From positions 1-58,528 of the forward strand of contig CAIJYR010000110.1 in assembly GCA_903824965.1 (NCBI GenBank): a DNA stretch of 58,528 nt. The letters are read 5' to 3'. Below, piece after piece: positions 7,355 to 49,262 of this stretch (position 1 is its first letter; the number at the start of each line of letters is the position of its first letter). Under the pieces are notes generated by a model. That model was not told the origin of the DNA, did no database searches, and worked only from the letters and a program-made list of their open reading frames with translations. Origin of the DNA: an uncultured Thiotrichales bacterium. GTDB lineage: Bacteria; Pseudomonadota; Gammaproteobacteria; CAIRSR01. The translations under genes and the position numbers were made by a program.

Positions 7355-7382
7355 CCCGATGCCTTCTCTGCGGACATAATCA

Positions 7383-9573: not shown

Positions 9574-9667
9574 GACTCTGACTTTCAGTTTGCCCCTCTT
9601 TTTAGCTTGCCCCTCTCATGGAAGGAGAGGGGGTGGGGAGAGGTGATCTGCTGGTTTTGAATGGATC
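9574..9667 (+). repeat. REP/MITE-like palindromic element R1 (subfamily GCCCCTCTCC)
   Basis: GACTCTGACTTTCAGTTTGCCCCTCT[TTTTAGCTTGCCCCTCT]CATGGAAGGAGAGGGGGTGGGGAGAGGTGATCTGCTGGTTTTGA. It contains an internal 17-nt duplication and lies immediately after the HK stop. Confidence 0.8.
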
Positions 9668-11985: not shown

Positions 11986-12048
11986 TTTTCAGATTGCCCC
12001 TCTCCTGAAAGGAGAGGGGTTGGGGTGAGGTAATCTTCTGGGTTTGAC
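11984..12048 (+). repeat. REP/MITE-like element R2 (subfamily GCCCCTCTCC)
   Basis: GATTTTCAGATTGCCCCTCTCCTGAAAGGAGAGGGGTTGGGGTGAGGTAATCTTCTGGGTTTGAC. It starts on the ROCO stop codon. Confidence 0.85.
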
Positions 12049-12097: not shown

Positions 12098-12192
12098 CAA
12101 AAAATCAACATCAAGAGATCAACCCCTCCCTCAACCCCTGCCCCAACCCCTCCCCGAATCATCGGGAAGGGGTTTAATACTACAGTCAAAAG
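12098..12192 (-). repeat. REP/MITE-like element R3 (inverted orientation; head-to-head partner of R2)
   Basis: ...CAACCCCTCCCTCAACCCCTGCCCCAACCCCTCCCCGAATCATCGGGAAGGGGTTTAATACTACAGTCAAAAG. It is the reverse complement of the family consensus. Confidence 0.75.
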
Positions 12193-12329: not shown

Positions 12330-15300
12330 ATGAGTCAACAGAAAGACAGTACACGGTATCAGGCCATTCTGTCCCGCCTACAGGCACTCATGGCAGAAGC
12401 GATGCCAGCGCAAAACTCCGGCGAGATGAACCTGGATGTCCCGTTCCTGGAGATGGGTGCCAATTCTTTGATCTTGATGGATGTGCAACGCACGGTAGAG
12501 AGTGAATATGGAATCACCATTACTATCGCCCAGTTCTTTGAGGAACTGACAACGATCGGTGCACTCGTTACCTACATCGACGAACAACAAGCACTGAAAA
12601 ACCCCGAAATGGTTGCCACTGCGGCTGCTTCGGTTGATCCGGTTGCACCTCCTCCGGTGATCACCACGCCAACGCTGGGCGAACCCGTCCACGCCGCATC
12701 GACCTATACGCCGATGACCGGGTTGCCGAGCCTGGGTGCGTTGGCCCCTGCAACCTTGCCAGTTGCAAGCGGTGCACTGGAGGCTATCTTCGCAAGCCAG
12801 ATCCGCACCACCGCACAAGCCATGAATGAGTTGGTCGCACGACAGTTGCAATTCTTGGCGCAGTCCGGTGTGTTGCCGACTTCGCCCCCTGTCACGGCCC
12901 TCCAAAAAGAATCCGCACCGATAGCCGTACAAGCACCACAGCCTCGTCCCAAAGAGCACACGCAACCAAGCGCACCCACCACCACCGACACCGTATCTCC
13001 TACCCCAAAAAAGGCCAAAGGCGCGTTGCAGCCGCAAAAGATGCTGTCCGCGCTCGAAATCCGCGCCCGTGGCCTCACCCCCACCCAACAGCAGCACCTA
13101 GAAGCACTGATCCGAGACTACAACGCTCGCACCCCAAAATCCAAAGCACACGCCGATCGCTATCGGACCGTCCTCGCAGACAGTCGCGCCGCCGTTGGTT
13201 TTCGTTTTACCACGAAAGAAATGCTGTATCTGCTGGTGGCCGGACGCTCACGCGGAAGCCGCGTTTGGGACATCGATGGCAATGAGTACATCGACATCAC
13301 GATGGGGCAGGGGGTGACACTCTTCGGACATCATCCCGAATGTGTCGAAAGCGCCTTTCAAGCCATGGGGTCGGACGGTGTCGGGTTGGGGCCGCGTCCC
13401 GAAAGCGTCGGCGAGGTCTCGGAACTGTTCTGCGAAATGACAGGCTTCGACCGAGTGACCTTCACAAACAGCGGCACCGAAGCCGTCATGGCCGCCCTAC
13501 GGTTGGCACGTGCCGCTACAGGTCGCTATAAAATCGTCATGTTCGAGGGCGCTTACCACGGCCACGCCGACAGCGTAATGGGCATGTCGGTTACTCGCGA
13601 TGGTGAAACGATTACACAGCCCGTCTCGCCAGGAACCCCGCCAGGGGCCGTAGCCGATCTGCTGGTCTTACCCTACGATGATCCTCAGACCCTAGAAGTG
13701 ATCAAAAAACACGGGGACACCATCGCAGCGGTCATCGTAGAGCCTGTCCAAAGCCGCAATCCACGGGTTCAGCCCCGCGAATTTTTGCACGCACTACGTC
13801 AACTGACCACCGACATCGGCGCATTGTTGATCTTCGACGAAATGATCACGGGTTTCCGTGCCCATTTGGGCGGCGCACAGGCTTGGTTTGGGGTACGCGC
13901 TGACATGGCCACCTACGGAAAAGTCATTGCAGGCGGAATGCCCATCGGGGTCGTTGCAGGAAAGGCAAGCCTCATGGATCCCATCGATGGCGGGCCTTGG
14001 CGCTACGGGGATGGTTCCTATCCGCAGGTCAATCGGGTGGTGTTCGGGGGTACGTTCTGTCAACACCCCCTGACCATGGCCGCGATGCTCGCAACCCTGC
14101 GATACCTCAAAGAACATTCGCCCACACTCCAAAACGATCTAAACCGCCGTACCGAAACCCTCGCCACCACCTTAAACCGCTGGTTTGCCGAAGAACAGGT
14201 ACCCATCGAGATCGTCTGGTTCGGATCTTTGTTTCGTTTTGAGTTTACTTCTAATCTGGAATTGTTGTTCTACCATATGAACTTGCGCGGCATTTTCGTA
14301 TGGGAATGGCGCAATTGTTTCTTGTCCACCGCCCACACAGATGCCGATGTCGCTGCCATCATTGCCGCTGTCAAAGACAGCGTGTTGGCCATGCGCTCCG
14401 GTGGGTTCATCCCCCCCAAAGCAGAACGCTCCGACCGCTATCCGCTCAATGCCGCACAACAGCAGTTGGCCGCGCTTGCACACATTACCCCAGAAGGCTC
14501 CAAAGCCTATCATCTGAACACGATGCTTGCGTTTCAGGGCAAAGTCGATGAGCGACGGCTCTCACAAGCGGTCGATCAGGTGGTCGCACGGCATGAAGCC
14601 CTGCACTCCGTGATCAGTGGCGATCAACAGTGCGTGTGTGCGCCCACAGGCGGACTGCTACAGTGTATCGACCTGCGCGGTGCCGCTGATGTCGAGGCCG
14701 CTTGTCGTGGTTGGTTGGCCGCCCATACCCAACAACCGTTCGATTTGACACAAGGGCCGCTCTTTGTCGCGCACCTCTTGCGCCTTGCTGATCAAGAGTA
14801 TCGATTTGTCCTGAAGGCCCATCATATTGTCATCGATGGCCTCTCGATGAACCTGATGATCCAAGAGATGGCCAATGTTTATGGCGCACTGTGTGCCGAT
14901 AAAACGCCAGCGTTGCCCGAACCGTTCCAATACCGCGATTATCTACAGTGGCAATCAGAAAACGCCTTTGCCGAATCAGAACGCTATTGGTTACAGCACC
15001 TTGGGGGCGAATTGCCGCGCCTAGAACTGCCAACGGATCGCCCACCGCCCGCCCTCAAGAGCTACCAGGGGGGACGGATTATGCGTCCGATCGATCGAAC
15101 CCTGTTTGCTGGCATACGCAAGTTGAGCAGTACGAATGGCGTGACGCCCTTCATGACCCTTTTGTCACTCTATGGATTGTGGCTGCACCGCCTTACGGGT
15201 CAGGACGACCTTATCATTGGGATGCCCGTTGCGGGACGTTCCCTCCATGGTGGGGATCGCTTGGTCGGGTATTGCACCCATTTGCTGCCGATTCGTTCTC

Positions 15301-17657
15301 GGCTTTTGTGGGATGAGCCCTTCGTTGCCTATCTGAAGCGGATGCGTGGGGTGCTTCTACAGGGGTACCAGCACCAGGATTACCCCTTTGCACGTCTCAT
15401 GGAAAAACTCGTCCTGCCCCGTGATGGTCGTCAGGCACCGCTTGTGTCGGTGATTTTTAACCTGGATCGGCCTGGGGCTGCGCCTGCGTTTGGGGATCTC
15501 GCGGTGCGTTGGTTGTCGCTCCCGATTCAGCATACCGCTTTCGATCTCGTGATGAACCTGACCGAACTCGGGGACGATCTTGCCCTAGAGTGTGACTACA
15601 ACGGTGATCGGTTCGATCTCGCCACCATCGAGCGTCTGATCGACCACTTCCAGACGATGATGGTGGGCGTCGTTGCAGACCCAAAACGTCCCTGCGCCCA
15701 ACAGCCTCTCTTGGACGAAGCGACTTGGCGGCGTTGGTTGATCGACTGGAACCAATCCGACCATCCCTACCAACCCGATCAGGGGGTTGCCGAGCGTTTT
15801 GCCACACAGGTCGAGGCAACGCCAGAAGCCATTGCGGTGCGCTGGTTTGAAGGTCGGTTGACGTACCATGCCCTGAACCGTGCGGCGAATCACCTCGCCC
15901 ATGCGCTACGGGCACAGGGGGTATCCAAGAACCGCATCGTTGCCATTGGTTTGCAGCGTTCTCCCTCGCTCATCGTGGCTATCCTTGCCACCTTGAAGGC
16001 AGGGGGTGCCTATTTGCCCCTTGATCCAGACTATCCACCGGCGCGGATCGCATTCATGCTGGAAGATGCAAAACCCTCCGTGCTGTTGACGGAAACCGCG
16101 ATCGCCGAACACCTGCCGATCATTCCGGGAACCGTGCGCTGGTTGCTGGATGCCGAGGGAGTACCACGAGATTTTCCGACGACCAATCCAGAGATCCAAA
16201 GCAACGCCGACGATCTCGCGTACGTCCTCTATACGTCTGGTTCCACCGGACAACCCAAGGGAACGATGATCACCCAGCGCGGCATGATCAATTATCTTAA
16301 CTGGGCCATAGAGTACTACCGGACGCGGGAAGGGGCCGGATCACCGCTGCATTCTTCGATTGGATTTGATGCCACGATCACGAGTCTTTTCACGCCGCTC
16401 TTGTCGGGGCGTACCCTGCACTTGTTGCCGCACACTGGCGAAGAGATCGAAAACATCCGCATTGCCCTCCAAGGCACCGATGGCAAAGGCCAAGACTGGT
16501 CTTTGGTGAAGCTCACGCCCGCCCATCTCGATCTCATGAACGTGATGATTCCAGGGCCGGAGCTTGCGGGTCTCACGCGCTATTTGGTGCTGGGTGGGGA
16601 TGCCATGTTGGGGCGCACGGTTGCACCGTGGCGTGCGTCGGCACCCGACACCCACATCATCAATGAATATGGCCCCACCGAGACCGTGGTGGGGTGTGCG
16701 ATTTACGATGATCGGCGGGTTGCGCCGTCCGAAGAAGCGGTGCCCATCGGTCGGCCCATCTGGAACACCCGCCTGTATGTGCTGGATGCACGGCGTCAGC
16801 CGGTGCCCATGGGCGTCCCTGGAGAGCTGTACATTGGGGGGGATGGCGTTGCGATTGGTTATCTGAACCGCCCTGAATTGACCGCAGAGCGATTTATTGA
16901 CGTTCACACGACGGGCCTCATGGAAGGGCCGTCTCCCGTTCCTCTCGGGAGACTCTACCGCACGGGCGATCGGGTGCGCCTACAGCCGGATGGCGAACTT
17001 GTGTACCTTGGTCGCTATGACAACCAGATTAAATTACGCGGATATCGTATCGAACTCGATGAGATTCAGGCGGCCTTGATCGCGCTCCCTGACATCCGCG
17101 AGGCCGTGGTGGTTGTGATCGGCAGCACTGACCACGATCGACGACTCGGTGCCTATCTAGTGTTGAACGAGGGCGTAGCGCCGCAGGTCAGTGCGTGGCG
17201 TGCTACACTGAGCGAACGCTTGCCGGATCACATGATCCCTTCTCATTTCGTCGTGCTTGAACAACTGCCCCTAACCGCCAATGGCAAGGTGGATCGTAAG
17301 GCGCTGCCTTCTTTGGCGAGTGTGGGTCAGGGGGTATCACCGCTGCAATCCCCCCGCAACGACACAGAACGGCGGATCGCTGCCATTTGGTGCGAATTGT
17401 TGCAACGTTCTGCGGTGGGGGTTGATGACAATTTCTTTGAGATTGGTGGACACTCGTTGATGGTGCTGCCTCTCAGAGAACGGTTGCTGTCTGAGTTTTC
17501 GCGTCCTTTGTCGCCGGTGGATCTGTTTCGCTATCCGACGGTTGCGAGCCTTGCGCAGTTCCTGTCGGCATCGAGCGATGTGCAGAATAACAGCGCGGTC
17601 GCGAGTGGCCGTAAGCGACGCGACAGTGCTGCACGACGCCAGGCGTTGGGCTTTTGA
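12330..17657 (+). CDS. hybrid NRPS: carrier - class III (GSA-type) aminotransferase - condensation - adenylation - PCP
   Basis: 1775 aa from ATG 12330 (TTG 12327 in the track). Motifs are the carrier [34 protein letters not shown] and [12 protein letters not shown] (PLP Lys), and C-domain [9 protein letters not shown]. A-domain cores are [37 protein letters not shown], YRTGD and [10 protein letters not shown]. The PCP motif is [11 protein letters not shown]. Confidence 0.95.
   Translation: [1775 protein letters not shown]
12348..12581 (+). other. N-terminal carrier (ACP/PCP) domain of the NRPS (approximate)
   Basis: The [13 protein letters not shown] motif has its phosphopantetheine Ser codon at 12465-12467. 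A Pro/Ala/Thr-rich linker of about 160 aa follows (about 12590-13060). Confidence 0.8.
13070..14410 (+). other. in-line PLP-dependent aminotransferase (AMT) domain (approximate)
   Basis: Class III aminotransferase signatures: [21 protein letters not shown], [26 protein letters not shown] and [12 protein letters not shown] (Lys codon about 13919-13921). Confidence 0.85.
14430..15720 (+). other. condensation (C) domain (approximate)
   Basis: HHxxxDG is present as HHIVIDG at 14820-14840, flanked by C1-like [10 protein letters not shown] and downstream C-domain cores. Confidence 0.85.
15790..17310 (+). other. adenylation (A) domain (approximate)
   Basis: A3 [11 protein letters not shown] lies at about 16230-16262, with A4 FDATITS, A5 NEYGPTE, A7 YRTGD, A8 [16 protein letters not shown] and A10 NGKVDRKAL (17281-17310). 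Substrate code not determined. Confidence 0.9.
17355..17570 (+). other. PCP domain (approximate)
   Basis: [13 protein letters not shown], with the Ser codon at about 17453-17455. Confidence 0.85.
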
Positions 17658-17705
17658 TTGTAGGGTTAAAGCCCTTCCATTGGGTTTTTATTGGGCTTTT
17701 ATTGG

Positions 17706-17782
17706 GATTCTGACTTTAGGAGTAAACCCCTTCCCCTCCAGGGGGAAGGAGCTGGGGGAGGCAGGGTGATTTGGTCTTGATC
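17706..17782 (+). repeat. REP/MITE-like element R4 (subfamily CCCCTTCCCC)
   Basis: GATTCTGACTTTAGGAGTAAACCCCTTCCCCTCCAGGGGGAAGGAGCTGGGGGAGGCAGGGTGATTTGGTCTTGATC. It lies in the NRPS-PKS intergenic region. Confidence 0.85.
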
Positions 17783-17854
17783 TTTAAGAATTTTGATCTT
17801 TAAAGAGTCTTGGAGCTTGGTAATGTCTAAGATAAAAGATGTTATCAAGCCATC

Positions 17855-17933
17855 CAAGACAAATCAGAACAAGCCCCCACCCATCCCCAACCCCTCCACG
17901 GAGGGGCTATGCCTAGAGTCAAAAACTCAAATC
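17855..17933 (-). repeat. REP/MITE-like element R5 (inverted; head-to-head partner of R4)
   Basis: CAAGACAAATCAGAACAAGCCCCCACCCATCCCCAACCCCTCCACGGAGGGGCTATGCCTAGAGTCAAAAACTCAAATC. Confidence 0.75.
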
Positions 17934-17982
17934 TTTTTGACTAGCACAGGAAACGCAACATGTTGTACACAATGGTGTAAAA

Positions 17983-20900
17983 ATGCCTACAACGAACGAT
18001 GACTGCGCTGCAACGGCTGGAATTGCCATTGTTGGTATGCATGTACGAGTTCCTGGTGCTACGAGTCTTGCACAATTCTGGTCGAATCTGCGCGACGGGG
18101 TCGAATCGATTACCTTTTTTAGCGATGAAGAATTGCGTACTGCCGGAGTCGATGAAGCTACCCTGGCCAATCCCGATTACGTCAAGGCTCTCGGTCGCTT
18201 GACGGGCATTGACCTGTTCGATGCTGCGTTTTTCAACCTAACACCCCGCGAAGCAGAGATCCTCGATCCACAACACCGTCTGTTGTTAGAAGGCGTTTGG
18301 CGTGCATTGGAACACGCTGCCATTGATCCAGAGCGTTATCCAGGACGGATCGGCTTGTTCGGTGGTGTCGGTCTGAACGGGTATTTGTTGCACAATCTCA
18401 TAAGCCACCCCGAATTGCTCGAAAGCGTCGGTGGCTGGCACTTGACCCTCAGCAACGACAAAGATTTTGCGACCACCCGCGTTGCCTACAAGCTCAACCT
18501 GCAAGGCCCAGCGATCACGATGAACACGGCGTGCTCGACGTCGCTCGTCGCAACCGTGATGGCGGCCCAAAGTCTGCTGAGCCACCAGTGTGATGTCGTA
18601 GTCGCTGGAGGTTGTTCCCTTCATTTGCCCCAAGATCAAGGCTATTTTTATACCCAAGGTGGAACACTGTCACCAGATGGTCATTGTCGCCCCTTCGACA
18701 GCCACGCCGCAGGAACCATCGATGGCAACGGCTGTGCCTTGGTGGTACTGAAGCGTTTGCAGGACGCCATCGAAGAAGGCGATACCATCCATGGTGTGAT
18801 TCGCGGTTTCGCCATCAACAACGATGGGTCGTTGAAGGTCGGATACAGTGCGCCAAGCGTTGCGGGACAAGCTGAGGTCATTCTGGAGGCGATGGAGATC
18901 GCGGGCATCACCGCCGACGCCATCGACTACGTAGAGACCCACGGTACCGCAACCGATCTCGGCGATTCCGTGGAGATCGCAGCCCTGACCGAAGCCTTTC
19001 GCACGAGCAGCCAGCGTGTGGGCCACTGTGCCATCGGGTCTCTCAAGAGCAACGTCGGACACCTCGACACGGCCGCCGGTGTTGCAAGCCTCATCAAGAC
19101 CGTCTTGGCGATGAACGCAGGAGAAATTCCGCCGACGTGTCATTTTCAGGCACCCAATCCAAAACTCGGACTTCCAGAAAGTCCCTTTTTCGTCAACGCG
19201 ACACGGATCCCCTGGCCGAAGCGTACCGGATCACTGCGTCGTGCGGGGGTCAGTTCGTTTGGCATCGGTGGCACCAATGCCCACGTCATTGTCGAAGAAG
19301 CCCCCCCTGCGAAAGCGTCTCGCATGGGGCGGCCGTGGGTGTTGCTGCCTCTGGCGGCCAAAACCCGAGAAGCCTTGGCACAGATGGGCACCGAACTCGC
19401 CGATCACCTCGATGCCCACCCTGCACAATCGCTTACCGACATTGCCCACACACTACAAGTGGGTCGACGTCATTTTCCGTGGCGGCGAATCCTGGTGGTG
19501 GCCGCCGATGATCACGCAAGTGCGAGTGCACAGCTTCGCGATCGGGATGTGGGTGTGCAGGGACAGACACCGACAGGCAGCGTTGCCCCGATTTTCTTGT
19601 TGCCAGGCCAAGATGCCCACTGCGCTAACATGGCGCTTGCACTCTACCGCGATGAGCCGCGCTTCCGCGCCACCCTAGAAGAGTGCCAAGCATGGTTATC
19701 GACCCATCATGGGATCGATCTGCGATCGCTTTTGTATGCCGAGTCGCCAAGCCACCTATCGGGCTTGGATCCCCTGCCGTTGTACGTCGTGAATGTTGCG
19801 CTTGCACAGCTTTGGTTGTCTTGGGGGGTGGTGCCACGCGCATTGGTCGGGTATAGCCTGGGCGAGTATGTTGCAGCAACCTTGGCAGGTGTCGTGACGT
19901 TGCACGAGGGTCTTGCGATCGCGGTTGCGGCCCGCCAGTTATTACAAACGCTCAAACCAGGACGCATGATCGCAGTGTGGTGCTCAGCCTCTGAATTGCA
20001 ACCACGCCTCCCCCCAAATACTTACCTAGCCATGGTGATCGGCCCTCAGCAGGTGGTTGCCGCCGGCACCGAAGAGGCGATCGCAACCCTGATCGAACAA
20101 CTCAAAGCGGTCGCACTACAGTGGCAACCTGTACCGTTGACGTTACCGTTCCACACGCCGCTGATGGAACCGTTTTTGGCACCGTTTGCCAAAGTGTTGC
20201 GTGAAATCCGTTTTCAGGAACCCAAGATTCCCTACCTTTGTTCCGTGACGGGCCACTGGATCACAGCGTCAGAAGCGACGGATCCAAGCCATTACCTGCG
20301 ATTGGCCACCACCACGGTACGCTTGGATCGCATGTTGGAGCGCCTGTTTGCGGATCTCGGTGCCGCCAACGATGGGGTATTGTTGGAGGTCGGACCGAGT
20401 CAGGTGTTGACCGCGCTGGTCTCGCGGCATCCGCAACGTCCTGCTGATTTGGCGGTGTTCTCTTCGCTGCCTGATCCACGCCATGCGGTGGTGGGGGGCG
20501 ATCAGGCGCACCTGTTGGGTACTGCAGGGCGTTTGTGGATTGCTGGGGTTGCCTTAGATTGGTCGGCGCTTGCGGATTCAGAGCGTTGTGTCGCGATCCC
20601 AGGGCACCCTCTGACGCCACAACGCTTCTGGATCGATCCCGTGCCTGTGCGTGTTGCCGACACCGAGGAAGTCTCAGACACCGCACCCGTACACAAAGAA
20701 CCAGACATCGGGCGTTGGTTTTATGTGCCTGGCTTTCGACGATTGCCACCCGCACGGGCGGTTCTGACCCCAGGCAGCCGTTGGTTGATCATTTATGATG
20801 CTGCAGGGTTGGCGAAGCGTTTGACCGTGGCTCTCCAAGCCGCGAATACAGAGGTGGTAGCGGTCTTTCCTTCCACAGGGCCACTGCAGGGATCGATGGC

Positions 20901-22524: not shown

Positions 22525-22686
22525 TCTATTATTCACACGCTTGCTGTACGTTATACCAGTCGTGTTTTGTGTGATTGTGGACATGGACAAACGGGACTGC
22601 TTTGTTGTATTCTGTCTAATGTATTTGTGTGATCACAGCCTGGTGTTCGTTGCGTGTACTACTACAGTTTTATAGGGGTATGAAGA

Positions 22687-23208
22687 ATGACTGAAGTTCA
22701 AAACCAAGATTCAAAGCGCCAAGAAGCCGATACCATTGTTCGCAACTATGCGATTGGTTCGATGGTTCCTAGCCTGTTGCCCGTGCCCATGCTGGATCTG
22801 GCCGTGGTGACCGGAGTTCAGTTGAAAATGCTGCACAGCCTGACCCAGATCTACGGAGTTCCTTTCAAAAAGGATCTGGCCCGTTCTGCGATGGCATCGC
22901 TCTTGGGCGGTACGGTGGCGTTGTCTTTGGCTCGTGTGACCTCTAGTGCCATCAAGGCGGTGCCGGTCGTTGGTTCGCTGATCGGTGCCTTCAGTATGCC
23001 TGTGGTCAACGGTGCGTCTACCTATGCCATTGGTAAAGTATTTGAACAGCATTTTGAGACGGGTGGCACGCTTCTGACTTTTGATCCAGTTCAGATGCGC
23101 GAGTATTTCAAGCAGCAGTTTGAAGAAGGCAAGAAGATTGTCTCGGCTGCGCAGGAAGCAAGTAAGGCGCCTGCTGCTGAACCCGCGAAAGCCGCCGTCA
23201 AGATGTAA
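22687..23208 (+). CDS. DUF697 (YcjF-like) domain membrane-associated protein
   Basis: ADTIVRNYAIGSMVPSLLPVPMLDLAVVTGVQLKMLHSLTQIYGVPF...AVPVVGSLIGAFSMPVVNGASTYAIGKVFEQHF matches the DUF697 pattern. The C-terminal tail is charged and Ala-rich. Confidence 0.65.
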   Translation: MTEVQNQDSKRQEADTIVRNYAIGSMVPSLLPVPMLDLAVVTGVQLKMLHSLTQIYGVPFKKDLARSAMASLLGGTVALSLARVTSSAIKAVPVVGSLIGAFSMPVVNGASTYAIGKVFEQHFETGGTLLTFDPVQMREYFKQQFEEGKKIVSAAQEASKAPAAEPAKAAVKM

Positions 23209-23230
23209 TATTGTTAGGCGATTGTTCGAC

Positions 23231-23278
23231 AGGGCCTTCCCAATAGGGGAAGACCCTGTACGGGTCGTTATTTTTGCT
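23231..23278 (+). terminator. possible rho-independent terminator
   Basis: An imperfect hairpin GGGCCTTCCC-AATA-GGGGAAGACCC is followed within about 15 nt by TTATTTTTG. Confidence 0.4.
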
Positions 23279-23309
23279 TTGAATCATCGCCTGTTGCAAC
23301 AATAATCGC

Positions 23310-24983
23310 ATGAAGAAACTAATCGATTTTTATATCAATGAGTCCGATGCCCCAAAGGGTAAAATATGGTTGATGGCGTCGATTTCTGGTACTGCGAACG
23401 CCATTTTGCTTGCGATTATCAATGTTGCTGCTTCTCAAATCTCGAACCGTGCATTAGAGGATAGATTTTTTGTCATGTATTTGGTGGGGCTCTTGCTGTT
23501 TATTTATGCGCAACGTTATGCCTTGACCGAGACCATGGTAGCCGTAGAGGATCTTATTCGAAAGATCCGCCTTCGCCTTGTGAATAAAATCCGGAATGCT
23601 GAATTGCGCTTTGTGGAGTCGCACGATCCCGCTACGTTCTACCGACCCATCACTGAAGACAGTAATGCTATATCGTTTGCTGCGTTGGTGCTGGTGATTG
23701 GATCACAGTCGGTGATCATGTTGATTGCGGTCATTATTTATCTGAGCTTTCTTTCTATCATCAGTCTGTTTGTCTGTGTTGGTTTTACGATGGTTGCATT
23801 GACGATTTATGCAAGTCATCAGCAGAAAGTACGAATGAAACTTGAATCTGCCTACAAAAATGAAACGGAAGTGTTTAGTGCTATATCGTCTGTGCTGAAC
23901 GGTTTTAAAGAACTAAAAGTCAATCGTCGCAAAAGCGATAAGCTGTTTCAATACATCAGCAATGCTTCTGATGAGTATCGAAAGCTCAAGGTTGATGCCA
24001 ATATGCGGCTTATTTTCGACTCCATGTTTTCGCAAATATCGTTTTACAGTCTACTCGTGGTTCTGGTTTTTATTGTTCCCATTTTTGACGAGGGACAAGC
24101 GGGGAATGTATTTAAAATCTGCGCAACCATCTTTTTCATTATGGGGCCGATCAACGGTCTTGTGAATGCGTTTCCCATGCTTGCGAAGGTCAACGTCACG
24201 ATTCAACAGATCTACGCATTGGAAGCGCAGTTGGATGAAATGGAAAAACGCCATCACGAGACCATGCAACGAGGTGTTGTGCAGCCGCTACCGTTTGTTG
24301 GCGAGATTGCATTTCAGGATGTGTCTTTCTCCTATCTGGATGACGGTGGTCGGCCGCTGTTCAGTGTTGGCCCATTGAATCTGGCGCTGCGTAAGGGCGA
24401 GATTGTATTCATCATTGGTGGGAATGGAAGCGGTAAATCGACTTTCCTAAAACTGTTGTGCGGTCTTTATGCCCAGGATGGCGGGGATATTACCGTGGAC
24501 AATCAGCGTATCGATGAATTGAATCGTCAACGGTATCGTGAGTTATTTTCTATTATTTTTACTGATTTTTATTTGTTTGATCGGTTGTACGGATTAGAAA
24601 ATGTAGACGAAAAGAGACTCCATGAGTTGTTGCGGTTGATGGAACTCGACAAGAAAACAAAATATGTCAATGGGCGTTTCACTACTCGTGATCTGTCCAC
24701 AGGACAACGCAAACGGCTTGCTTTTATTGTGTCGGTTCTCGAAAACAGACCTGTGTGTGTCTTTGACGAACTGGCAGCAGATCAAGACCCTCAGTTCAGA
24801 CAAAACTTCTACCAGAATATTTTGCCACAATTACGGCAGGAAGGGCGTGTGATTATTGCAGCCACCCACGACGACAAGTATTTTTACTGTGCGAATCGTG
24901 TACTAAAAATGGACGCTGGCCAATTATTGCCCTACCATAATCCTGATGCAACACCCTCTTGCAATACCACAACGCTTCTGTAA
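23310..24983 (+). CDS. cyclic-peptide/siderophore-type export ABC transporter (SyrD/PvdE/YojI-like, fused TMD-NBD)
   Basis: 557 aa with an N-terminal 6-TM domain. Walker A is GGNGSGKST, the signature is LSTGQRKRLAF and Walker B is VCVFDELAADQD. GC is visibly lower than in the neighbours. Confidence 0.9.
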   Translation: MKKLIDFYINESDAPKGKIWLMASISGTANAILLAIINVAASQISNRALEDRFFVMYLVGLLLFIYAQRYALTETMVAVEDLIRKIRLRLVNKIRNAELRFVESHDPATFYRPITEDSNAISFAALVLVIGSQSVIMLIAVIIYLSFLSIISLFVCVGFTMVALTIYASHQQKVRMKLESAYKNETEVFSAISSVLNGFKELKVNRRKSDKLFQYISNASDEYRKLKVDANMRLIFDSMFSQISFYSLLVVLVFIVPIFDEGQAGNVFKICATIFFIMGPINGLVNAFPMLAKVNVTIQQIYALEAQLDEMEKRHHETMQRGVVQPLPFVGEIAFQDVSFSYLDDGGRPLFSVGPLNLALRKGEIVFIIGGNGSGKSTFLKLLCGLYAQDGGDITVDNQRIDELNRQRYRELFSIIFTDFYLFDRLYGLENVDEKRLHELLRLMELDKKTKYVNGRFTTRDLSTGQRKRLAFIVSVLENRPVCVFDELAADQDPQFRQNFYQNILPQLRQEGRVIIAATHDDKYFYCANRVLKMDAGQLLPYHNPDATPSCNTTTLL

Positions 24984-25015
24984 CGCTGCCTTTTGCACTG
25001 TGATCTAAAAACGCC

Positions 25016-25720
25016 ATGAACCTCTATGCGCTTCCCTATGCGGGTGGTCACTCACTGGTCTATCGGAATCTACAACCGTTGTTGAAACCAGCGGTCAACC
25101 TGCAAGCGATCGATCCCCCTGGTCGTGGTCGTCGAAGTCATGAACCGTTGATTACCGACATGGAACACATGGCCGACGATGTCTTCCATCGTATTCAGCA
25201 TGAATTGACCGATCACCCCTATGCGATCTTTGGTCATAGTATGGGGTCTTTGCTGGCTTATTTGTTGGCAAGGCGTATTGCAGAAGCTGCGTTGCCCTTG
25301 CCAAAACATCTGTTTTGCAGTGGTCGTGCGTCTCCTTCGGTGCCAGCTGCGGAAATCCTGATGCCACCCCCTAAGCATACGTTACCCTCTCCTGCGTTTT
25401 GGGCCTATATTGAGGGTCTCGGTGGTGTGCCCCCTGAGGTAAAATTGCATCGTGAGCTTATGGAGTATTTTGAGCCTGTGCTGCGGGCCGATATCAAGGC
25501 ATTGGAGTGTTATCAATACCGTGCACCCCAGAAGCCGCTTGGGGTTCCGATCACCGTGTTCTACGGTATCGAGGATAGGGAGATTACTACTGAGTCGTTG
25601 ATGCCGTGGCAGCAGGAGAGTACGGAGGGAGTGACTTTGTGCCCTTTGCATGGAGGTCACTTTGGGATCTTCGAACAATGGCCATTGCTTGCGCGGCACC
25701 TTTTGAAGGCATGTGCATGA
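25016..25720 (+). CDS. type II thioesterase (GrsT/TycF-like, alpha/beta hydrolase)
   Basis: 234 aa, with N-terminal LPYAGGHS, the nucleophile elbow GHSMGSLLAY and a C-terminal GGHF motif. Confidence 0.9.
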   Translation: MNLYALPYAGGHSLVYRNLQPLLKPAVNLQAIDPPGRGRRSHEPLITDMEHMADDVFHRIQHELTDHPYAIFGHSMGSLLAYLLARRIAEAALPLPKHLFCSGRASPSVPAAEILMPPPKHTLPSPAFWAYIEGLGGVPPEVKLHRELMEYFEPVLRADIKALECYQYRAPQKPLGVPITVFYGIEDREITTESLMPWQQESTEGVTLCPLHGGHFGIFEQWPLLARHLLKACA

Positions 25721-25736
25721 TTGGACACAATCTTTC

Positions 25737-25804
25737 GACTTTTAGTGCGCCCCTCTCCTGAAAGGAGAAGGGTTGGGGAGAGGTAGGGTGCTGGTTTTGA
25801 TTTG
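25737..25804 (+). repeat. REP/MITE-like element R6 (subfamily GCCCCTCTCC)
   Basis: GACTTTTAGTGCGCCCCTCTCCTGAAAGGAGAAGGGTTGGGGAGAGGTAGGGTGCTGGTTTTGATTTG. Confidence 0.85.
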
Positions 25805-25830
25805 TTTTTAGATCAAGATTCTTGAAGATA

Positions 25831-25910
25831 TCAAAACCAAGATCAAACCACCCTGTCTCCCCCAGCCCATTCCCCCCAGAGGGGAAGGGGCTTAATCCTA
25901 AAGTCAAAAG
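25831..25910 (-). repeat. REP/MITE-like element R7 (inverted; subfamily CCCCTTCCCC; partner of R6)
   Basis: TCAAAACCAAGATCAAACCACCCTGTCTCCCCCAGCCCATTCCCCCCAGAGGGGAAGGGGCTTAATCCTAAAGTCAAAAG. Its reverse complement is highly similar to R4. Confidence 0.85.
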
Positions 25911-25956
25911 TGTTTTTATTTCTGCTACATCTTATTCTCCGGCAACAGGAGTTGTG

Positions 25957-26814
25957 ATGAATAACAAGACCGTTGGCGTCGTTGGTGCGGGTGTGATGGG
26001 TAGCGGTGTGGCCCAAAACCTTGCGCAGAGCGGCTTTACCGTGGTACTGATTGACATTAGCGAAGAGGCGTTGAAACGAACGGAAGCGGAAATTCGCAAG
26101 AATGTCCGCTTCTCTGCGTTTTATGCCAAGGACAAAACAAAAGTAGAGCCACTAGATACGGTCATGAATCGTATCGAATTTACCACCGATTACAGCAATC
26201 TCTCAGACGCTTATTTTGTCGTCGAGAACGCCTCCGAAAAATGGGAAGTCAAACAGGCCGTATATCCGTTGATCGACCAATATGCCCCCCCTGAAGCGCG
26301 AGTGGCTGCCGATACTTCCTGTTTCTCTATCACGCGCTTGGCATCCCTGACCAAACGTCCAGACAAAATCATTGGCATGCACTTTATGAATCCCGTGCCG
26401 ATGAAAACCACGGTCGAGGTCATCAAAGGCTACCACACCAGCCCCGAAACCATTACCATCGGCCTCGATTTTCTGGCGGCGATGGGCAAAGATGGCATTG
26501 TCGTCAACGATGCCCCCGGGTTTGTCTCCAACCGTGTGCTGATGTTGACGGTGAATGAGGCGATTTTTGTTGTCCACGATGGCGTGGCGACCGCTGCACA
26601 GGTCGATGATATACACAAAAAGTGTTTTGGACATAAAATGGGACCCTTAGAGACGGCCGATCTCATCGGTCTCGATACCATTCTTTATTCCGTGGAAGTG
26701 CTCTGGGAGAGTTATAACGATAGCAAATATCGTCCGTGCCCGTTGCTGAAAAAAATGGTTGCCGCCGGTTTATTGGGGCGTAAAAGTGGCGAAGGTTTCT
26801 ACAAATACAAGTGA
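25957..26814 (+). CDS. 3-hydroxyacyl-CoA/ACP dehydrogenase (FkbK/ZmaG-like)
   Basis: Trimmed to ATG 25957, because the track extension translates repeat R7. Sequence reads MNNKTVGVVGAGVMGSGVAQNLAQSG (Rossmann fold), IIGMHFMNP and GRKSGEGFY. Confidence 0.9.
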   Translation: MNNKTVGVVGAGVMGSGVAQNLAQSGFTVVLIDISEEALKRTEAEIRKNVRFSAFYAKDKTKVEPLDTVMNRIEFTTDYSNLSDAYFVVENASEKWEVKQAVYPLIDQYAPPEARVAADTSCFSITRLASLTKRPDKIIGMHFMNPVPMKTTVEVIKGYHTSPETITIGLDFLAAMGKDGIVVNDAPGFVSNRVLMLTVNEAIFVVHDGVATAAQVDDIHKKCFGHKMGPLETADLIGLDTILYSVEVLWESYNDSKYRPCPLLKKMVAAGLLGRKSGEGFYKYK

Positions 26815-26825
26815 ACGAGTGCACA

Positions 26826-27059
26826 ATGGGTACCATCGAAGAGGCAGTGCGCGGTTTTCTCTGGCAATTCATCAGTGACCAAGAGGTAGAGGGCGACCAT
26901 GATCTTTTTGGATCCGGAATGGTCAATTCACTGTTTGCCATGCAGTTGGTGTTGTTCGTCGAGAAGCAATATGGCATCACGGTAGCCAACGAAGACCTTG
27001 ATTACGAAAACTTTAAGTCGGTCAATGCGATCGTTGCCTTTATACAGTCCAAGCAGTAG
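26826..27059 (+). CDS. free-standing acyl carrier protein (FkbJ/ZmaD-like)
   Basis: About 77 aa with a GMVNSLFAMQLV phosphopantetheine-Ser motif. Possible starts are ATG 26826 or GTG 26811 (GTGA overlap with the upstream stop). Confidence 0.85.
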   Translation: MGTIEEAVRGFLWQFISDQEVEGDHDLFGSGMVNSLFAMQLVLFVEKQYGITVANEDLDYENFKSVNAIVAFIQSKQ

Positions 27060-27064
27060 AAGTA

Positions 27065-28270
27065 ATGGGAGTGGCTGTGATGGATTTTGACTTAACCGCA
27101 GAACAGCGTACCGCGCAAGCCGGATTCCGCCAGTGGGTTGAACAGCATGTAGTGCCGGTTGCCGATGCCAATGACAACCGCGAACAAACACCACCCGATC
27201 TCATTGCAAAATTAGCAGCACCCGGGTATCTCGGTGCCTTGGTCGCCAAAGAATACGGCGGCGAGGGCATGGATGCGTTGACGTGGGGTTTGCTGTGTGA
27301 GGAAGTGGGACGCGGCAGTGCATCCTTGCTGAGCTTGCTCACGGTGCATGGCATGGTGATCCAATCCATCGCAAAATGGGGTACTGCAGCACAGCGTGCA
27401 CGATGGTTGCCCGTATTGGCAACAGGTGAGACCATCGGTGCGTTTGGCCTTACCGAGCCGAATGTGGGCAGTGACGCAAAGAGCATTCAGAGCATCGCGG
27501 TGGCACAACCCGATGGCAGTTATGTGCTGAATGCAGAAAAGCGTTGGATATCCTTTGGCGCATCCGCCAACCTCATTTTGGTGATTGCCAAGGTCAATGA
27601 AAAACCCACGGGTTTTCTCGTCGAACGAAACATGCCTGGTTTCTCGTCAGAGCCGATTTATGGCATGCTCGGTTTTCGTTCCGCAAACATCGCCCGCCTG
27701 ATCATGCGTGATGTGATCATTCCACCAGAAAATCTGGTCGGAAAGGTTGGTTTTGGTTTCTCACACATTGCGGGCACCGCGCTCGATCATGGTCGTTACT
27801 GTGTCGGCTGGGGGTGTGTCGGACTCGCCCAAGCCGCGCTGGATGCTTCGCTCTCTTATTCAGGCGAACGCTATCAGTTCGACGTCACGCTGAATAAACA
27901 CCAGCTCATCCAAGAAATGTTGGCAGAGATGATTGTCAATGTGAAAGCTGCGCGGATGCTCAATTACCATTCGGCTTTCTTGAAGGATCGTGGCGATCCG
28001 TCATTGATCATGGAAACCTCGATGGCAAAATATTTTGCGTCACGGGTCGCCGCACAAGTGACCAATGCGGCTGTACAGATTCATGGGGCCAATGGTTGCT
28101 CAAGCGATTATCCGGTACAACGTTATTATCGAGACGCAAAAATTATGGAGATTATCGAGGGAAGCAACCAGATGCAGCAGATTATCATTGCAAAATCGGG
28201 CTATCAGCAGCATCTTGTGGCAAAACGTGCAGCGCGTCGATCCTCTGCAATAGAGGGGGAGGGGAAGTAA
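27065..28270 (+). CDS. acyl-CoA/ACP dehydrogenase, FAD-dependent (FkbI/ZmaE-like)
   Basis: 401 aa. ACAD signatures are MDFDLTAEQ, GAFGLTEPNVGSDA and QIHGANGCSSDYPVQRYYRDAKIMEIIEGSNQMQ. An alternative start is ATG 27080. Confidence 0.9.
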   Translation: MGVAVMDFDLTAEQRTAQAGFRQWVEQHVVPVADANDNREQTPPDLIAKLAAPGYLGALVAKEYGGEGMDALTWGLLCEEVGRGSASLLSLLTVHGMVIQSIAKWGTAAQRARWLPVLATGETIGAFGLTEPNVGSDAKSIQSIAVAQPDGSYVLNAEKRWISFGASANLILVIAKVNEKPTGFLVERNMPGFSSEPIYGMLGFRSANIARLIMRDVIIPPENLVGKVGFGFSHIAGTALDHGRYCVGWGCVGLAQAALDASLSYSGERYQFDVTLNKHQLIQEMLAEMIVNVKAARMLNYHSAFLKDRGDPSLIMETSMAKYFASRVAAQVTNAAVQIHGANGCSSDYPVQRYYRDAKIMEIIEGSNQMQQIIIAKSGYQQHLVAKRAARRSSAIEGEGK

Positions 28271-29313
28271 TGGCCAGTGGAAAAGGCAAAGATCACAAAA
28301 TCAAGTGTCTCGTCTGGGATCTCGACAATACCTTATGGCGTGGTACCCTGTTGGAAGATCAGGAAGTCACCCCCCATCCAGACGCACGGGCATTGATCAG
28401 AACGCTGGATGATCGCGGTATTTTGCAATCCATCGCTAGCAAAAACGATCACGCATTGGCAGAGAAAAAATTGCGTCAACTGGGATTGTTTGATTACTTT
28501 CTTTATCCGCAGATCAACTGGAGTGCAAAATCAGAGTCGATCCAGAACATCGCAACGCTCATCAACATCGGTATAGATACCCTTGCCTTTATCGATGATC
28601 AAGCCTTTGAGCGCGAAGAAGTGGCCTTCAGTCACCCCAAGGTGCTGACCATCGATGCTACAGAAATCGCACAGGTAGCGAATCTCGCGGTCATGCAGCC
28701 GCATTTTATTACAGAGGATTCTCGGCGGCGGCGGGAGATGTACCAGAGTGACCTTCGTCGGAAAGATGTCGAAGATCGCTTTGAAGGGCCGAAAGATGCG
28801 TTTCTAGAAACGCTCAATATGGTGCTAACGATTCAACGTGCCAAACAGGACGATTTGAAACGTGCGGAAGAACTGACACAACGTACCAACCAGCTGAATA
28901 CTACAGCGTATACCTATGATTACGATGAATTGAGCGCCTTCAGTCAGTCACCGGATTATTTGCTGTTGGTTGCCGGACTGGAGGACAAATACGGTACCTA
29001 CGGGAAAATCGGCCTAGTGTTGGTAGAAAAGCGTGAGAAAACGTGGTTGATCAAATTATTTCTCATGTCCTGTCGTGTCATGTCGCGTGGTGTTGGCACG
29101 GTCATGATCAACTATCTGCGGAACATGGCGCGGGCTGATGGGGTGGCCTTGGAAGCAGAGTTTGTCCAGAATGATAGAAACCGCATGATGTACATGACCT
29201 ATAAATTCAACCATTTCCGCGAGAAAGAAAAACGCGAAAACTGGATATTGCTTGAAAATGATCTGAGTCGTGAACAGGCATATCCGCAATATATGCGGAT
29301 GATCACAGAGTGA
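28270..29313 (+). CDS. FkbH-like HAD-IIIC phosphatase/glyceryl-ACP-forming enzyme
   Basis: Trimmed to ATG 28270 (TAATG overlap with the upstream stop). The HAD motif I is KCLVWDLDNTLWRGTL, followed by SIASKND and FIDDQAFERE. The C-terminal FkbH-type domain (CRVMSRGVG) is present. Confidence 0.85.
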   Translation: MASGKGKDHKIKCLVWDLDNTLWRGTLLEDQEVTPHPDARALIRTLDDRGILQSIASKNDHALAEKKLRQLGLFDYFLYPQINWSAKSESIQNIATLINIGIDTLAFIDDQAFEREEVAFSHPKVLTIDATEIAQVANLAVMQPHFITEDSRRRREMYQSDLRRKDVEDRFEGPKDAFLETLNMVLTIQRAKQDDLKRAEELTQRTNQLNTTAYTYDYDELSAFSQSPDYLLLVAGLEDKYGTYGKIGLVLVEKREKTWLIKLFLMSCRVMSRGVGTVMINYLRNMARADGVALEAEFVQNDRNRMMYMTYKFNHFREKEKRENWILLENDLSREQAYPQYMRMITE

Positions 29314-29334
29314 AAGAGTGAAAGAGTGAAAGGT

Positions 29335-33556: not shown

Positions 33557-34624
33557 CTACTTGCAGATCGGCAGCGTGTGGTTGGACACGACGCTTGGGT
33601 ATAGGGTTCTTAGGCCACCACCCTCTCCAATCACCACGCTGTTGAAGGTGATACCCGATCCTGGATCTTTGATGAGATAGCGACAAGCCTGTTTGGTGCT
33701 GGGAGCACCAAGCAGGGTGATAGCGCGGGTTCCGTGTACCAACAGTTGTGGGCCATCCAGGGTGTAGAAATAGCCCGACGTATGCGGTGTTTGCACCCGT
33801 CGACCGCGCCATTCGTGTTCGATGCCTACGCTGTAGAGGATTCCAGGGAGGATTTCTTTCTGTCCCCGGTACGGTGCCATCAGCCCACCCCAGCCGCGAC
33901 GTTGCAGTTGCAGAAAGGCTCCACGGTAGTGTGGCCCGTCGATGCGTGTTGCGCTTGGCTCGCCGCAGAACACACGACGGAAACCATCCACCAAAAACCA
34001 GAGATCCGTAACCCGATCGAGCACAGCACGATGACCACAGTCGGTGCCTTTTTCGGGGCAGCCCAAGGCAGCGGTGAGATCCGCAAAGAGCGCATCTTCT
34101 GACTCGATGAGGGTTCGGAAGGCCCCTGGCTCTGGATAGTCTCCAGGATAGCCGCAGAGGGCAAGCAGACGCTCTTCCAGGGGAGTCACGGGGGGGGGCG
34201 ACGGCGTGATGTCGACGAGTTTATGGCGTGGATAGTCGACATACACCGGATTGTCGATTTGATCGAAAAAATGGTTAAACCGGAGTGTCCCTGAGTCCGC
34301 ACGGTATTCCCCGCAGTCTAGATCGGCCCAGCGCACCCGTGGCCGTGCATCTGGCACAATGATGCGTATCCAGCCACCCCCTCGCAGATCCAAAGTCAGC
34401 GCACGGTACGCCTTGCCAGGTTCTAGCTGGACATTGCCGGGGTTCAAGCCCTGCAGGGTGAGGGTCGCCGAACACTGATCGGAGGCAACGAACTCCCCAT
34501 GGGTCGCGACCACAGCAGCACCGGACTGCTCTGCCACCAGCCACAGGATAAGCCCAACGATCAAGAAGCCAATGTATTTGCTGGAGAGCACGAAACAGTC
34601 CTGTCGCAATACCGTTACAAGCAC
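33557..34624 (-). CDS. hypothetical secreted/membrane-anchored protein; weak XendoU-like resemblance
   Basis: 355-aa ORF with a GTG start. An N-terminal hydrophobic signal or anchor is present (IGFLIVGLILWLVAEQSGAAVVA). The segment LWFLVDGFRRVFCGEPSATRIDGPHYRGAFLQL loosely resembles the WF..SGFEHVFVGE..GFHNW core of EndoU nucleases, but the first catalytic His is replaced. Confidence 0.5.
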   Translation of the reverse strand: MLVTVLRQDCFVLSSKYIGFLIVGLILWLVAEQSGAAVVATHGEFVASDQCSATLTLQGLNPGNVQLEPGKAYRALTLDLRGGGWIRIIVPDARPRVRWADLDCGEYRADSGTLRFNHFFDQIDNPVYVDYPRHKLVDITPSPPPVTPLEERLLALCGYPGDYPEPGAFRTLIESEDALFADLTAALGCPEKGTDCGHRAVLDRVTDLWFLVDGFRRVFCGEPSATRIDGPHYRGAFLQLQRRGWGGLMAPYRGQKEILPGILYSVGIEHEWRGRRVQTPHTSGYFYTLDGPQLLVHGTRAITLLGAPSTKQACRYLIKDPGSGITFNSVVIGEGGGLRTLYPSVVSNHTLPICK

Positions 34625-40206: not shown

Positions 40207-40268
40207 CTAAAACAACACAATCTGCCACCCCTCTCCTGAAAGGATAGGGGTATGCTAAAAGTCAAAAG
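40207..40268 (-). repeat. REP/MITE-like element R9 (inverted, degenerate; partner of R8)
   Basis: CTAAAACAACACAATCTGCCACCCCTCTCCTGAAAGGATAGGGGTATGCTAAAAGTCAAAAG. The spacer to R8 is AT-rich (TTATTATCA repeats). Confidence 0.7.
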
Positions 40269-49245: not shown

Positions 49246-49262
49246 CTTTTTCTTGGCCCAGT

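Follow-up and report, generated by a model that had tools for sequence, protein, structure and literature searches.

A hybrid locus of nonribosomal peptide synthetase (NRPS) and type I polyketide synthase (PKS) genes lies at positions 12330-29313 of a 58,528-nucleotide stretch of DNA from an uncultured Thiotrichales bacterium (contig CAIJYR010000110.1 of GenBank assembly GCA_903824965.1), the whole of which is called the window in what follows. The list of open reading frames, read together with Pfam and NCBIfam searches, gives nine co-directional genes on the plus strand where the original prediction had counted ten; its gene and domain assignments, including those of the aminotransferase and the FkbH-type enzyme, were all borne out by these searches. 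The first gene (12330-17657) encodes an NRPS of 1775 amino acids composed of an acyl carrier protein domain (ACP1; PP-binding, residues 31-92), a class-III aminotransferase of the MycA type (Aminotran_3, 301-658, 190 bits), a condensation (C) domain (703-1132, 300 bits), an adenylation (A) domain with an Asn-type code (AMP-binding and AMP-binding_C, 1158-1654) and a peptidyl carrier protein (PCP; PP-binding, 1683-1746). The second (17983-22524) encodes the PKS, 1513 amino acids in length, with ketosynthase (KS), atypical acyltransferase (AT), ketoreductase (KR) and ACP (PP-binding) domains recognised by Pfam, and a C-terminal docking tail. These are followed by a DUF697 protein (22687-23208; PF05128, 51 bits, no NCBIfam match), an ABC exporter with fused permease and ATPase that belongs to the cyclic-peptide exporter family (23310-24983; TIGR01194, 309.9 bits against a cut-off of 286.2) and a type II thioesterase of 234 amino acids (25016-25720; PF00975, 125.5 bits). 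The last four genes encode a 3-hydroxyacyl-CoA dehydrogenase family protein (3HCDH; 25957-26814, with the ATG at 25957 as the likely start; PF02737 and PF00725), a free-standing ACP (26811-27059; PF00550, 28.6 bits), an acyl-CoA dehydrogenase family protein (ACAD; 27065-28270; Pfam ACAD N, M and C domains) and a predicted glyceryl-ACP-forming enzyme of the FkbH type, HAD-IIIC family (28270-29313; TIGR01686, 277.5 bits against a cut-off of 146.65), in the roles of FkbK/ZmaG, FkbJ/ZmaD, FkbI/ZmaE and FkbH, respectively. Stop/start overlaps are present at ACAD/FkbH (TAATG) and at 3HCDH/ACP (GTGA), as had been described.

The catalytic motifs, said at the outset to be readable in the translation, are indeed so. 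The carrier serines stand in GANSL, GGHSL and GGNSL, the pyridoxal phosphate lysine of the aminotransferase in TYGKVIAGG, and the C domain carries HHIVIDG (HHxxxDG); the Cys-His-His of the KS and the Lys/Ser/Tyr/Asn set of the KR are intact, the type II thioesterase has GHSMG and a C-terminal His, and the FkbH-type enzyme has a DLDNT (DxDxT) motif and the conserved cysteine in MSCRV. The AT is atypical, with GYSLG, LPFH and a displaced Arg that depart from the usual pattern. The stereochemistry of the KR is not assignable, as the domain has neither the LDD motif nor the diagnostic Trp. Pfam searches of the locus and six-frame motif scans of the window detected no O-methyltransferase, type I thioesterase (TE), reductase, fatty acyl-AMP ligase (FAAL), MbtH protein, phosphopantetheinyl transferase (PPTase) or beta-hairpin docking domain, which upholds the claim that loading and release domains, MbtH and PPTase are absent from the locus. 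Pfam likewise found no epimerization (E) domain, starter-position C domain or ClbP-type peptidase in the locus. The nearest methyltransferase, of the Methyltransf_11/UbiE type, is encoded on the minus strand at 40933-41871, 11.6 kb away among unrelated genes. Rfam gave no match in the window, and scans for promoters and terminators returned counts no higher than in shuffled sequence.

The NRPS resembles part of a well-known type of synthetase. The best match of its aminotransferase domain in the Protein Data Bank (PDB) is the MycA domain (6kfm; E = 7.8e-150), followed by glutamate-semialdehyde (GSA) aminomutases at about 1e-61, in accord with the original proposal of an in-line aminotransferase of the iturin/mycosubtilin type. 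The Stachelhaus code of the A domain, read ungapped from the NxYGPTE motif, is DATKVGEVGK, and nine orthologues that are only 45-76% identical have exactly this code too. It is Asn-like by prediction, agreeing at 9 of 10 positions with the canonical Asn code DATKLGEVGK, and it shares the pattern D-x-T-K-(V/I)-G-E-V-G-K with DLTKIGEVGK, the code of the module that follows the aminotransferase of P0091, an iturin-family synthetase. Iturin-family modules of that code activate Asn. Because a MycA-type aminotransferase is combined with an Asn-like code, the window NRPS is predicted to couple a beta-amino acyl chain to Asn and, by its domain content, corresponds to the C-terminal half of MycA/ItuA. 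These synthetases of mycosubtilin and iturin have the order FAAL-ACP-KS-AT-ACP-aminotransferase-C-A(Asn)-PCP, and the window NRPS is equivalent to their ACP-aminotransferase-C-A-PCP part. It differs from them in that it starts with a carrier, that the window encodes no FAAL and has its sole KS-AT in the downstream PKS, that it is followed by a KS-AT-KR-ACP PKS instead of further NRPS modules, and that it is accompanied by a hydroxymalonyl-ACP cassette in a proteobacterial host. Dozens of full-length homologues with the same five-domain architecture, 45-76% identical to it, occur in Proteobacteria and metagenomes. The architecture is thus not unique, and the statement that the cluster is not assignable to a characterised pathway holds only for its gene order, for which no characterised counterpart was found in the open-access literature.

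The four genes that close the locus have the composition of an extender-unit cassette. The same four enzyme families serve zwittermicin (ZmaN/ZmaD/ZmaG/ZmaE) and FK520 (FkbH/J/K/I) biosynthesis, and their joint presence, with TIGR01686 and the Pfam matches above their cut-offs, agrees with the hydroxymalonyl-ACP cassette first proposed, so that by analogy the cassette would make hydroxymalonyl-ACP. No methyltransferase domain occurs in the nine proteins; the locus has no FkbG-type O-methyltransferase, again as proposed, and because of this the hydroxymalonyl product is predicted to stay unmethylated. The PDB ranking does not show that the ACAD is an orthologue of FkbI in particular, as the FkbI structure (1r2j; E = 3.8e-45) is only 58th among the matches, and for the FkbH-type enzyme the PDB search gave no informative solved structure. 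The cassette order 3HCDH-ACP-ACAD-FkbH is kept in nearly all of about 40 metagenome loci of at least 9 kb (from 80 retrieved, L014-L093), counting those in which all four genes are visible. FkbH identity is 54-66% among the metagenome loci, although their NRPS/PKS surroundings differ widely, and 60-86% across many phyla in the protein database. The four genes behave as a mobile, highly conserved extender-unit module. Unlike the zwittermicin system, the window has no aminomalonyl genes, and its gene order and assembly-line context differ. It also differs from prodrug lines of the zwittermicin/amicoumacin/colibactin type in having no starter C-A(Asn)-PCP-E, no N-acyl-D-Asn prodrug features and no ClbP-type peptidase. 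Extension of an amino acid with hydroxymalonate followed by ketoreduction would give the amino-diol motif of zwittermicin/amicoumacin-type products.

The wider setting of these genes emerges from the gene contexts of relatives, which were read for eleven loci, two of them reached via FkbH. Delftia sp. PS-11, Thalassomonas actiniarum, Algibacillus agarilyticus and three metagenome contigs share one gene order, in which a PKS with KS-AT-DH-MT...ACP domains is followed by a stand-alone KS-AT of 1260-1440 amino acids, the 3HCDH-ACP-ACAD-FkbH cassette and a Kelch-like protein of about 395 amino acids, and then by the aminotransferase-NRPS, a KS-(AT)-KR-ACP PKS and a terminal NRPS. The succession of NRPS and PKS is seen in L001-L003 and L008-L012. 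The terminal NRPS (about 2800 amino acids, with a TubC_N dock, a sulfotransferase and a TE end) follows the PKS in five of the six large clusters, the place being taken by unrelated genes in Delftia, and a Magnetococcales genome (HHB-1) holds a permuted version of the cluster with FAAL heading the PKS. The sulfotransferase of the terminal NRPS (PF13469/PF00685; L003 19957-25307; P0241-P0275) is embedded after a PCP and ahead of the C domain that follows; it could have a hydroxyl as its target for sulfation, or take part in an elimination like that of CurM. The Kelch-like protein gives a faint Kelch-repeat match (L002 8781-10019; L011 8681-9868; L012 8765-9952; L013 13916-15127), and in the large clusters its gene always follows FkbH and precedes the aminotransferase-NRPS. 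The window NRPS, PKS and four cassette genes are orthologous to those of this orphan family (Delftia sp. PS-11, Thalassomonas actiniarum, Algibacillus agarilyticus, Magnetococcales, Sulfuricellaceae and Ectothiorhodospiraceae bacterium BW-2), and the internal order of the cassette, the A-domain code and the pattern of the PKS C-terminal tail are shared as well. The window differs from the large clusters in its lack of the FAAL/PKS, the stand-alone KS-AT, the Kelch-like gene and the terminal NRPS with sulfotransferase and TE, and in the position of its cassette, which is downstream of the PKS, with the DUF697, ABC exporter and type II thioesterase genes between, instead of upstream of the NRPS. 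A tblastn search of the window with the stand-alone KS-AT, the Kelch-like protein, the FAAL-PKS and the terminal NRPS found neither copies nor remnants.

The opening of the large clusters follows the logic of puwainaphycin biosynthesis, in which PuwC/D (FAAL, ACP) and PuwB (KS-AT-DH-MT-ER-KR-ACP) precede PuwE (KS-AT-Ox-ACP-AmT-C-A-PCP): both begin with a FAAL-PKS that carries a C-methyltransferase and proceed through KS-AT to ACP-aminotransferase-C-A-PCP. The orphan family differs in that it has no monooxygenase and that the KS-AT and the ACP-aminotransferase are on separate proteins, and the window itself has neither the FAAL-PKS nor the KS-AT part of this opening. An aminotransferase-monooxygenase pair is described as the conserved cyanobacterial route to 3-amino-2-hydroxy units (PMC13252402). 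We infer that in the orphan family the hydroxymalonyl-ACP cassette stands in for the monooxygenase as the source of the alpha-hydroxyl, and the family may make 3-amino-2-hydroxy acyl units from hydroxymalonyl-ACP with the in-line aminotransferase.

The PKS of the window shares 45-54% identity along its full length with the PKS found after the NRPS elsewhere, and only about 33% with the stand-alone KS-AT. An exact eight-residue pattern scan of genome contigs with the PKS brought up three loci, one of which is a close relative (a 2.8-kb Thiotrichales contig, 62% identity over the PKS C-terminus). The best PDB matches of the window AT are CurL and ZmaA. The AT has GYSLG in place of GHSxG, and QWQ-x5-LPFH in place of the basic RXR-x5-(H/Y)A(F/S)H. 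CoA-dependent ATs have GHSxG, while ZmaA, which uses hydroxymalonyl-ACP, has GYSFG/GAAH and ZmaF, which uses aminomalonyl-ACP, has GYSLG/GPFH; non-basic residues at the RXR site were linked to ACP-borne extenders with the ZmaA structure (PMC4207774). The window AT thus shares with ZmaA and ZmaF the Tyr for His of GHSxG and the loss of a basic RXR, and GYSLG with a non-basic QWQ fits an ACP-linked extender from the neighbouring cassette. It differs from ZmaA in its Arg, which is shifted by one residue from the position of FabD R117 and ZmaA R217. None of the orthologues of this AT has the Arg in place, for it is displaced or, in most of them, absent, and the residue after the first Gly varies among Y, S, C and I; in three relatives the AT region has been cleanly deleted from the orthologous PKS (L008 15452-19372; L009 15438-19208; L011 15353-19027), leaving KS-KR-ACP proteins of 1224-1306 amino acids. 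The stand-alone KS-AT proteins beside the cassette retain GYSIGE, the Arg and HAFH, and the AT of the FAAL-PKS in L012, which serves as an internal control, is canonical (GHSVGE, KRA, HAFH). The simplest reading of these sequences, since the ATs of the PKS are degenerate or deleted while the stand-alone KS-ATs stay canonical in Arg and HAFH, is that the AT inside the downstream PKS would be dispensable or vestigial in the orphan family, the extender being loaded in trans. The orthologous PKS has the appearance of a cis-AT module en route to service in trans.

A second clue to a split line lies at the C-terminus of the PKS, in its docking tail. The window protein ends in ...EEERDEGFL, and orthologues end in REEGVL, REEGYL, REEGFL, RDVGFL, RDEGLL and WEEGFL. 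N-terminal docking domains of the beta-hairpin type are known to bind short acidic motifs at the C-terminal end of carrier domains, with the last five residues making contact (reviewed in PMC9113145), and in the large clusters the PKS with such a tail precedes an NRPS with a TubC_N (beta-hairpin) docking domain. Pfam and motif scans of the window revealed no docking domain that could serve as the partner of the tail, and the thioesterase, at 234 amino acids, is too short to hold one. As the tail is conserved at 45-62% overall identity, the partner NRPS is presumed to be encoded elsewhere.

Dispersal of the blocks of this family can be seen directly in relatives. The NRPS and PKS of Ectothiorhodospiraceae bacterium BW-2, 58% and 54% identical to those of the window, form a pair by themselves on its complete chromosome; the ACP-ACAD-FkbH genes with a Kelch-like gene lie 1.4 Mb from this pair, with an ACP 82% identical to that of the window, and a terminal NRPS-TE (P0275; 52% identity to the Thalassomonas protein) is encoded on the same chromosome without adjoining the pair. 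BW-2 appears to carry blocks of the family at three loci. Between its NRPS and PKS stands a gene for a Peptidase_M50B-like protein of 223 amino acids (L001 15187-15858), and genes for a lipid A acyltransferase-like protein and a GT2 glycosyltransferase come next, on the opposite strand. The closest relative of the window NRPS (76% identity; L004, a gammaproteobacterial metagenome-assembled genome) is a solitary gene, downstream of which no PKS remnant was found; a gene for an Sfp-type PPTase (PF01648; L004 7659-8357) lies 1.6 kb upstream of it, a kind of gene that the window does not have. The closest FkbH relative (86% identity) belongs to a locus with a PKS, KS-AT, cassette and Kelch-like gene followed by unrelated genes, and without the NRPS and PKS pair. 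The exact gene order of the window was met neither among the relatives inspected nor among the approximately 40 FkbH-bearing metagenome loci of at least 9 kb. The description of the cluster as self-contained, with only two modules, is not supported by these comparisons: both the NRPS and the PKS are orthologous over their full length, at 45-58% identity, to genes from the middle of a larger line, the blocks of which are split in relatives, and the docking tail has no partner in the window.

Repeats had been noticed from the start, and two families of them do punctuate the locus: they occupy the gap that precedes the NRPS gene, the one that separates it from the PKS gene, and the one that follows the thioesterase gene, ahead of the cassette. 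Repeat A, about 72 nucleotides, forms a hairpin, CCCCTCTCC-TGAAA-GGAGAGGGG, and is intergenic and on the plus strand in all copies (9589-9660, 11976-12047, 25729-25800 and approximately 40228-40251); its core has five matches where none is expected by chance. Repeat B, about 77 nucleotides with 84-87% identity between copies, is found in the gaps before the NRPS (a partial copy at 12164-12191, beyond the repeat A copy at 11976-12047), between NRPS and PKS (17708-17784, in the gap 17658-17982) and before the cassette (an inverted copy at 25833-25909, alongside repeat A at 25729-25800 in the gap 25721-25956). Both families carry a GC-rich hairpin. Relatives leave at most about 100 nucleotides between their NRPS and PKS genes, which in some abut or overlap, so that the repeat B copy between the two genes of the window looks like an insertion. 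The repeats were considered as borders of an island and rejected as such, for the same elements at 9589-9660 and at about 40228, outside the locus, mark them as genome-wide elements. A compositional island was likewise rejected: total GC falls between 22 and 29 kb, but the GC content at third codon positions (GC3) shows no such fall, being 0.53-0.64 in cluster genes and flanks and lower only in the ABC exporter gene. With no tRNA gene in the window either, the idea of an acquired island, part of the original prediction, finds no support. The ABC exporter gene, with a GC of 0.438 and a GC3 of 0.475, the lowest of the genes examined in the window, may differ in origin. The repeats sit at two junctions where synteny with relatives breaks, and it may be speculated that recombination at repeats built the arrangement seen in the window.

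The interpretation that we favour, with moderate confidence, is that the locus represents one rearranged part of a hybrid assembly line that has been split, within a widespread orphan family of the beta-amino-fatty-acid lipopeptide type. This part comprises two middle modules, the extender cassette, an editing thioesterase and an exporter, and the genes for the enzymes of loading and release most likely lie in other parts of the genome. A plausible course of biosynthesis can be drawn from the observed domains, catalytic residues, orthology, gene contexts and tail conservation, each chemical step, the trans partners and export being inferred from these. By analogy with ZmaN/D/G/E and FkbH/J/K/I, the FkbH-type enzyme would load a glycolytic C3 unit onto the free ACP, and the 3HCDH- and ACAD-type enzymes would oxidise it to hydroxymalonyl-ACP. 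ACP1 of the NRPS would receive a beta-keto acyl chain, probably alpha-hydroxylated, from a KS-AT acting in trans, for which the candidate in relatives is the stand-alone KS-AT beside the cassette, a protein that is not encoded in the window. The MycA-type aminotransferase would turn this beta-keto chain into a beta-amino acyl thioester, and the C domain would join the beta-amino chain to Asn activated by the A domain. The PKS would then add one C2 unit, and reduction by its KR would yield a 4-amino-3-hydroxy acid unit or, with hydroxymalonate, a 2,3-dihydroxy unit. Through its tail the PKS would dock on a beta-hairpin-docking NRPS (C-A-PCP-sulfotransferase-C-A-PCP-TE) encoded elsewhere, which would finish and release the product, while the type II thioesterase would edit mis-primed carriers and the ABC transporter would export the product.

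Several observations weigh against a split line. The genome is seen here through 58.5 kb, and the proposed partners in this organism are postulated. The locus looks like a working unit because it has its own cassette, thioesterase and exporter, and its gene order, unique among the loci inspected, could reflect a new, self-sufficient solution. The window AT keeps its Ser and His, with the Arg one residue out of register, and judged by these residues may still be active, and conservation of the docking tail could be inherited and not functional. A rival proposal, which we consider unlikely, is that the nine genes alone constitute a minimal line with no dedicated loading or release domain. Such a line could operate in two ways: the single KS-AT of the PKS might be used a second time, serving ACP1 in trans as well as the ACP of the PKS in cis, or an FkbH-derived 2-hydroxy-3-oxopropanoyl thioester might be transaminated to an isoserine-type starter on a carrier. 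Coupling to Asn, extension with hydroxymalonate, reduction and hydrolysis by the type II thioesterase would give a small polar amino-polyol acid, to be exported by the ABC transporter. The genes are intact, co-directional and partly overlapping, and the cassette, exporter and thioesterase have been brought beside the NRPS-PKS pair in an order unseen in the relatives inspected; GYSLG in the AT is as in ZmaF, and 2-hydroxy-3-oxopropanoyl-ACP, as a beta-oxo thioester, would fall into the substrate class of MycA-type aminotransferases. The conserved docking tail would nevertheless have no partner in the window, the ATs of the orthologues are degenerate or deleted, and in the large clusters that hold the pair it is a separate KS-AT protein that serves ACP1. 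BW-2, with the same isolated pair, encodes a terminal NRPS-TE elsewhere, and the literature searched provides no precedent for a line of this kind.

It is about equally improbable that the locus is an evolutionary remnant, a fragment of a large cluster that after rearrangement and deletion is no longer productive and has not yet decayed. Loss would account for a window in which the loader, stand-alone KS-AT, Kelch-like gene and terminal NRPS are absent without pseudogene traces, and the repeats inserted between two genes that abut in relatives, the atypical AT and the solitary state of the closest NRPS relative are all compatible with it. Decay is difficult to reconcile, however, with open reading frames of 1775 and 1513 amino acids that contain neither frameshift nor stop and in which every catalytic residue checked is intact, with an A-domain code invariant among orthologues that are only 45-76% identical, and with a conserved docking tail; the complete genome of BW-2, moreover, has the same dispersed layout with all parts present. 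Least probable of all is that the locus belongs to an already characterised pathway missed by the open-access literature search, for although culturable members (Thalassomonas actiniarum, Delftia sp. PS-11 and Algibacillus agarilyticus) may have been studied, the full-text literature, searched also by strain name, returned nothing relevant, and the source names on all homologues are generic. In the same open-access literature nothing relevant was found in which FkbH or hydroxymalonyl is combined with an aminotransferase domain, sulfotransferase, FAAL or 3-amino-2-hydroxy unit; no mention of the genes occurs in the papers found on clusters of magnetotactic or multicellular bacteria, and the literature found for Thalassomonas actiniarum concerns lanthipeptides and not this cluster.

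The surroundings of the locus in the window are of varied character. Directly upstream of the NRPS is a gene for a ROCO protein of 736 amino acids (9775-11985; LRR, Roc GTPase, COR-A and COR-B), itself preceded by a response regulator and histidine kinase pair (6659-9566); the ROCO gene is not beside the cluster in relatives. At the other end a tandem repeat, AGAGTGAA in three copies at 29308-29333, spans the FkbH stop codon, and the FkbH and TatD genes converge with about 21 nucleotides between their stop codons. Further downstream are genes for a protein with a C-terminal bacterial EndoU nuclease domain, toxin-like (33557-34624, minus strand), an adenylate/guanylate cyclase fused to an FHA domain (35228-36112), a protein of 2069 amino acids that consists almost wholly of TPR repeats (42461-48670) and a YhdP-family protein of 1387 amino acids (49101-53264).

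By itself the locus is an ordinary orphan biosynthetic locus, and its weight rests mainly on the features of the family and on what it teaches about split clusters. For genome mining it provides a caution, in that a 'compact' cluster without loader or release domain can be one piece of a line dispersed over several loci, and a conserved C-terminal docking tail together with a degenerate AT are clues to such a split that can be read at the level of sequence. Were the nine genes nonetheless to constitute a complete pathway, they would make a small exported amino-polyol peptide without a dedicated loading or release domain; the novelty of the orphan family, in the possible formation of 3-amino-2-hydroxy units via hydroxymalonyl-ACP, is both broader and more likely. 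This family is widespread in sulfur-oxidising, magnetotactic and marine Proteobacteria, and no assigned product was found for it. It joins a hydroxymalonyl-ACP cassette, a MycA-type aminotransferase and an NRPS-embedded sulfotransferase, which suggests an oxygenase-free route to 3-amino-2-hydroxy fatty-acid lipopeptides, and its culturable members, Thalassomonas actiniarum, Delftia sp. PS-11 and Algibacillus agarilyticus, make this orphan pathway testable.

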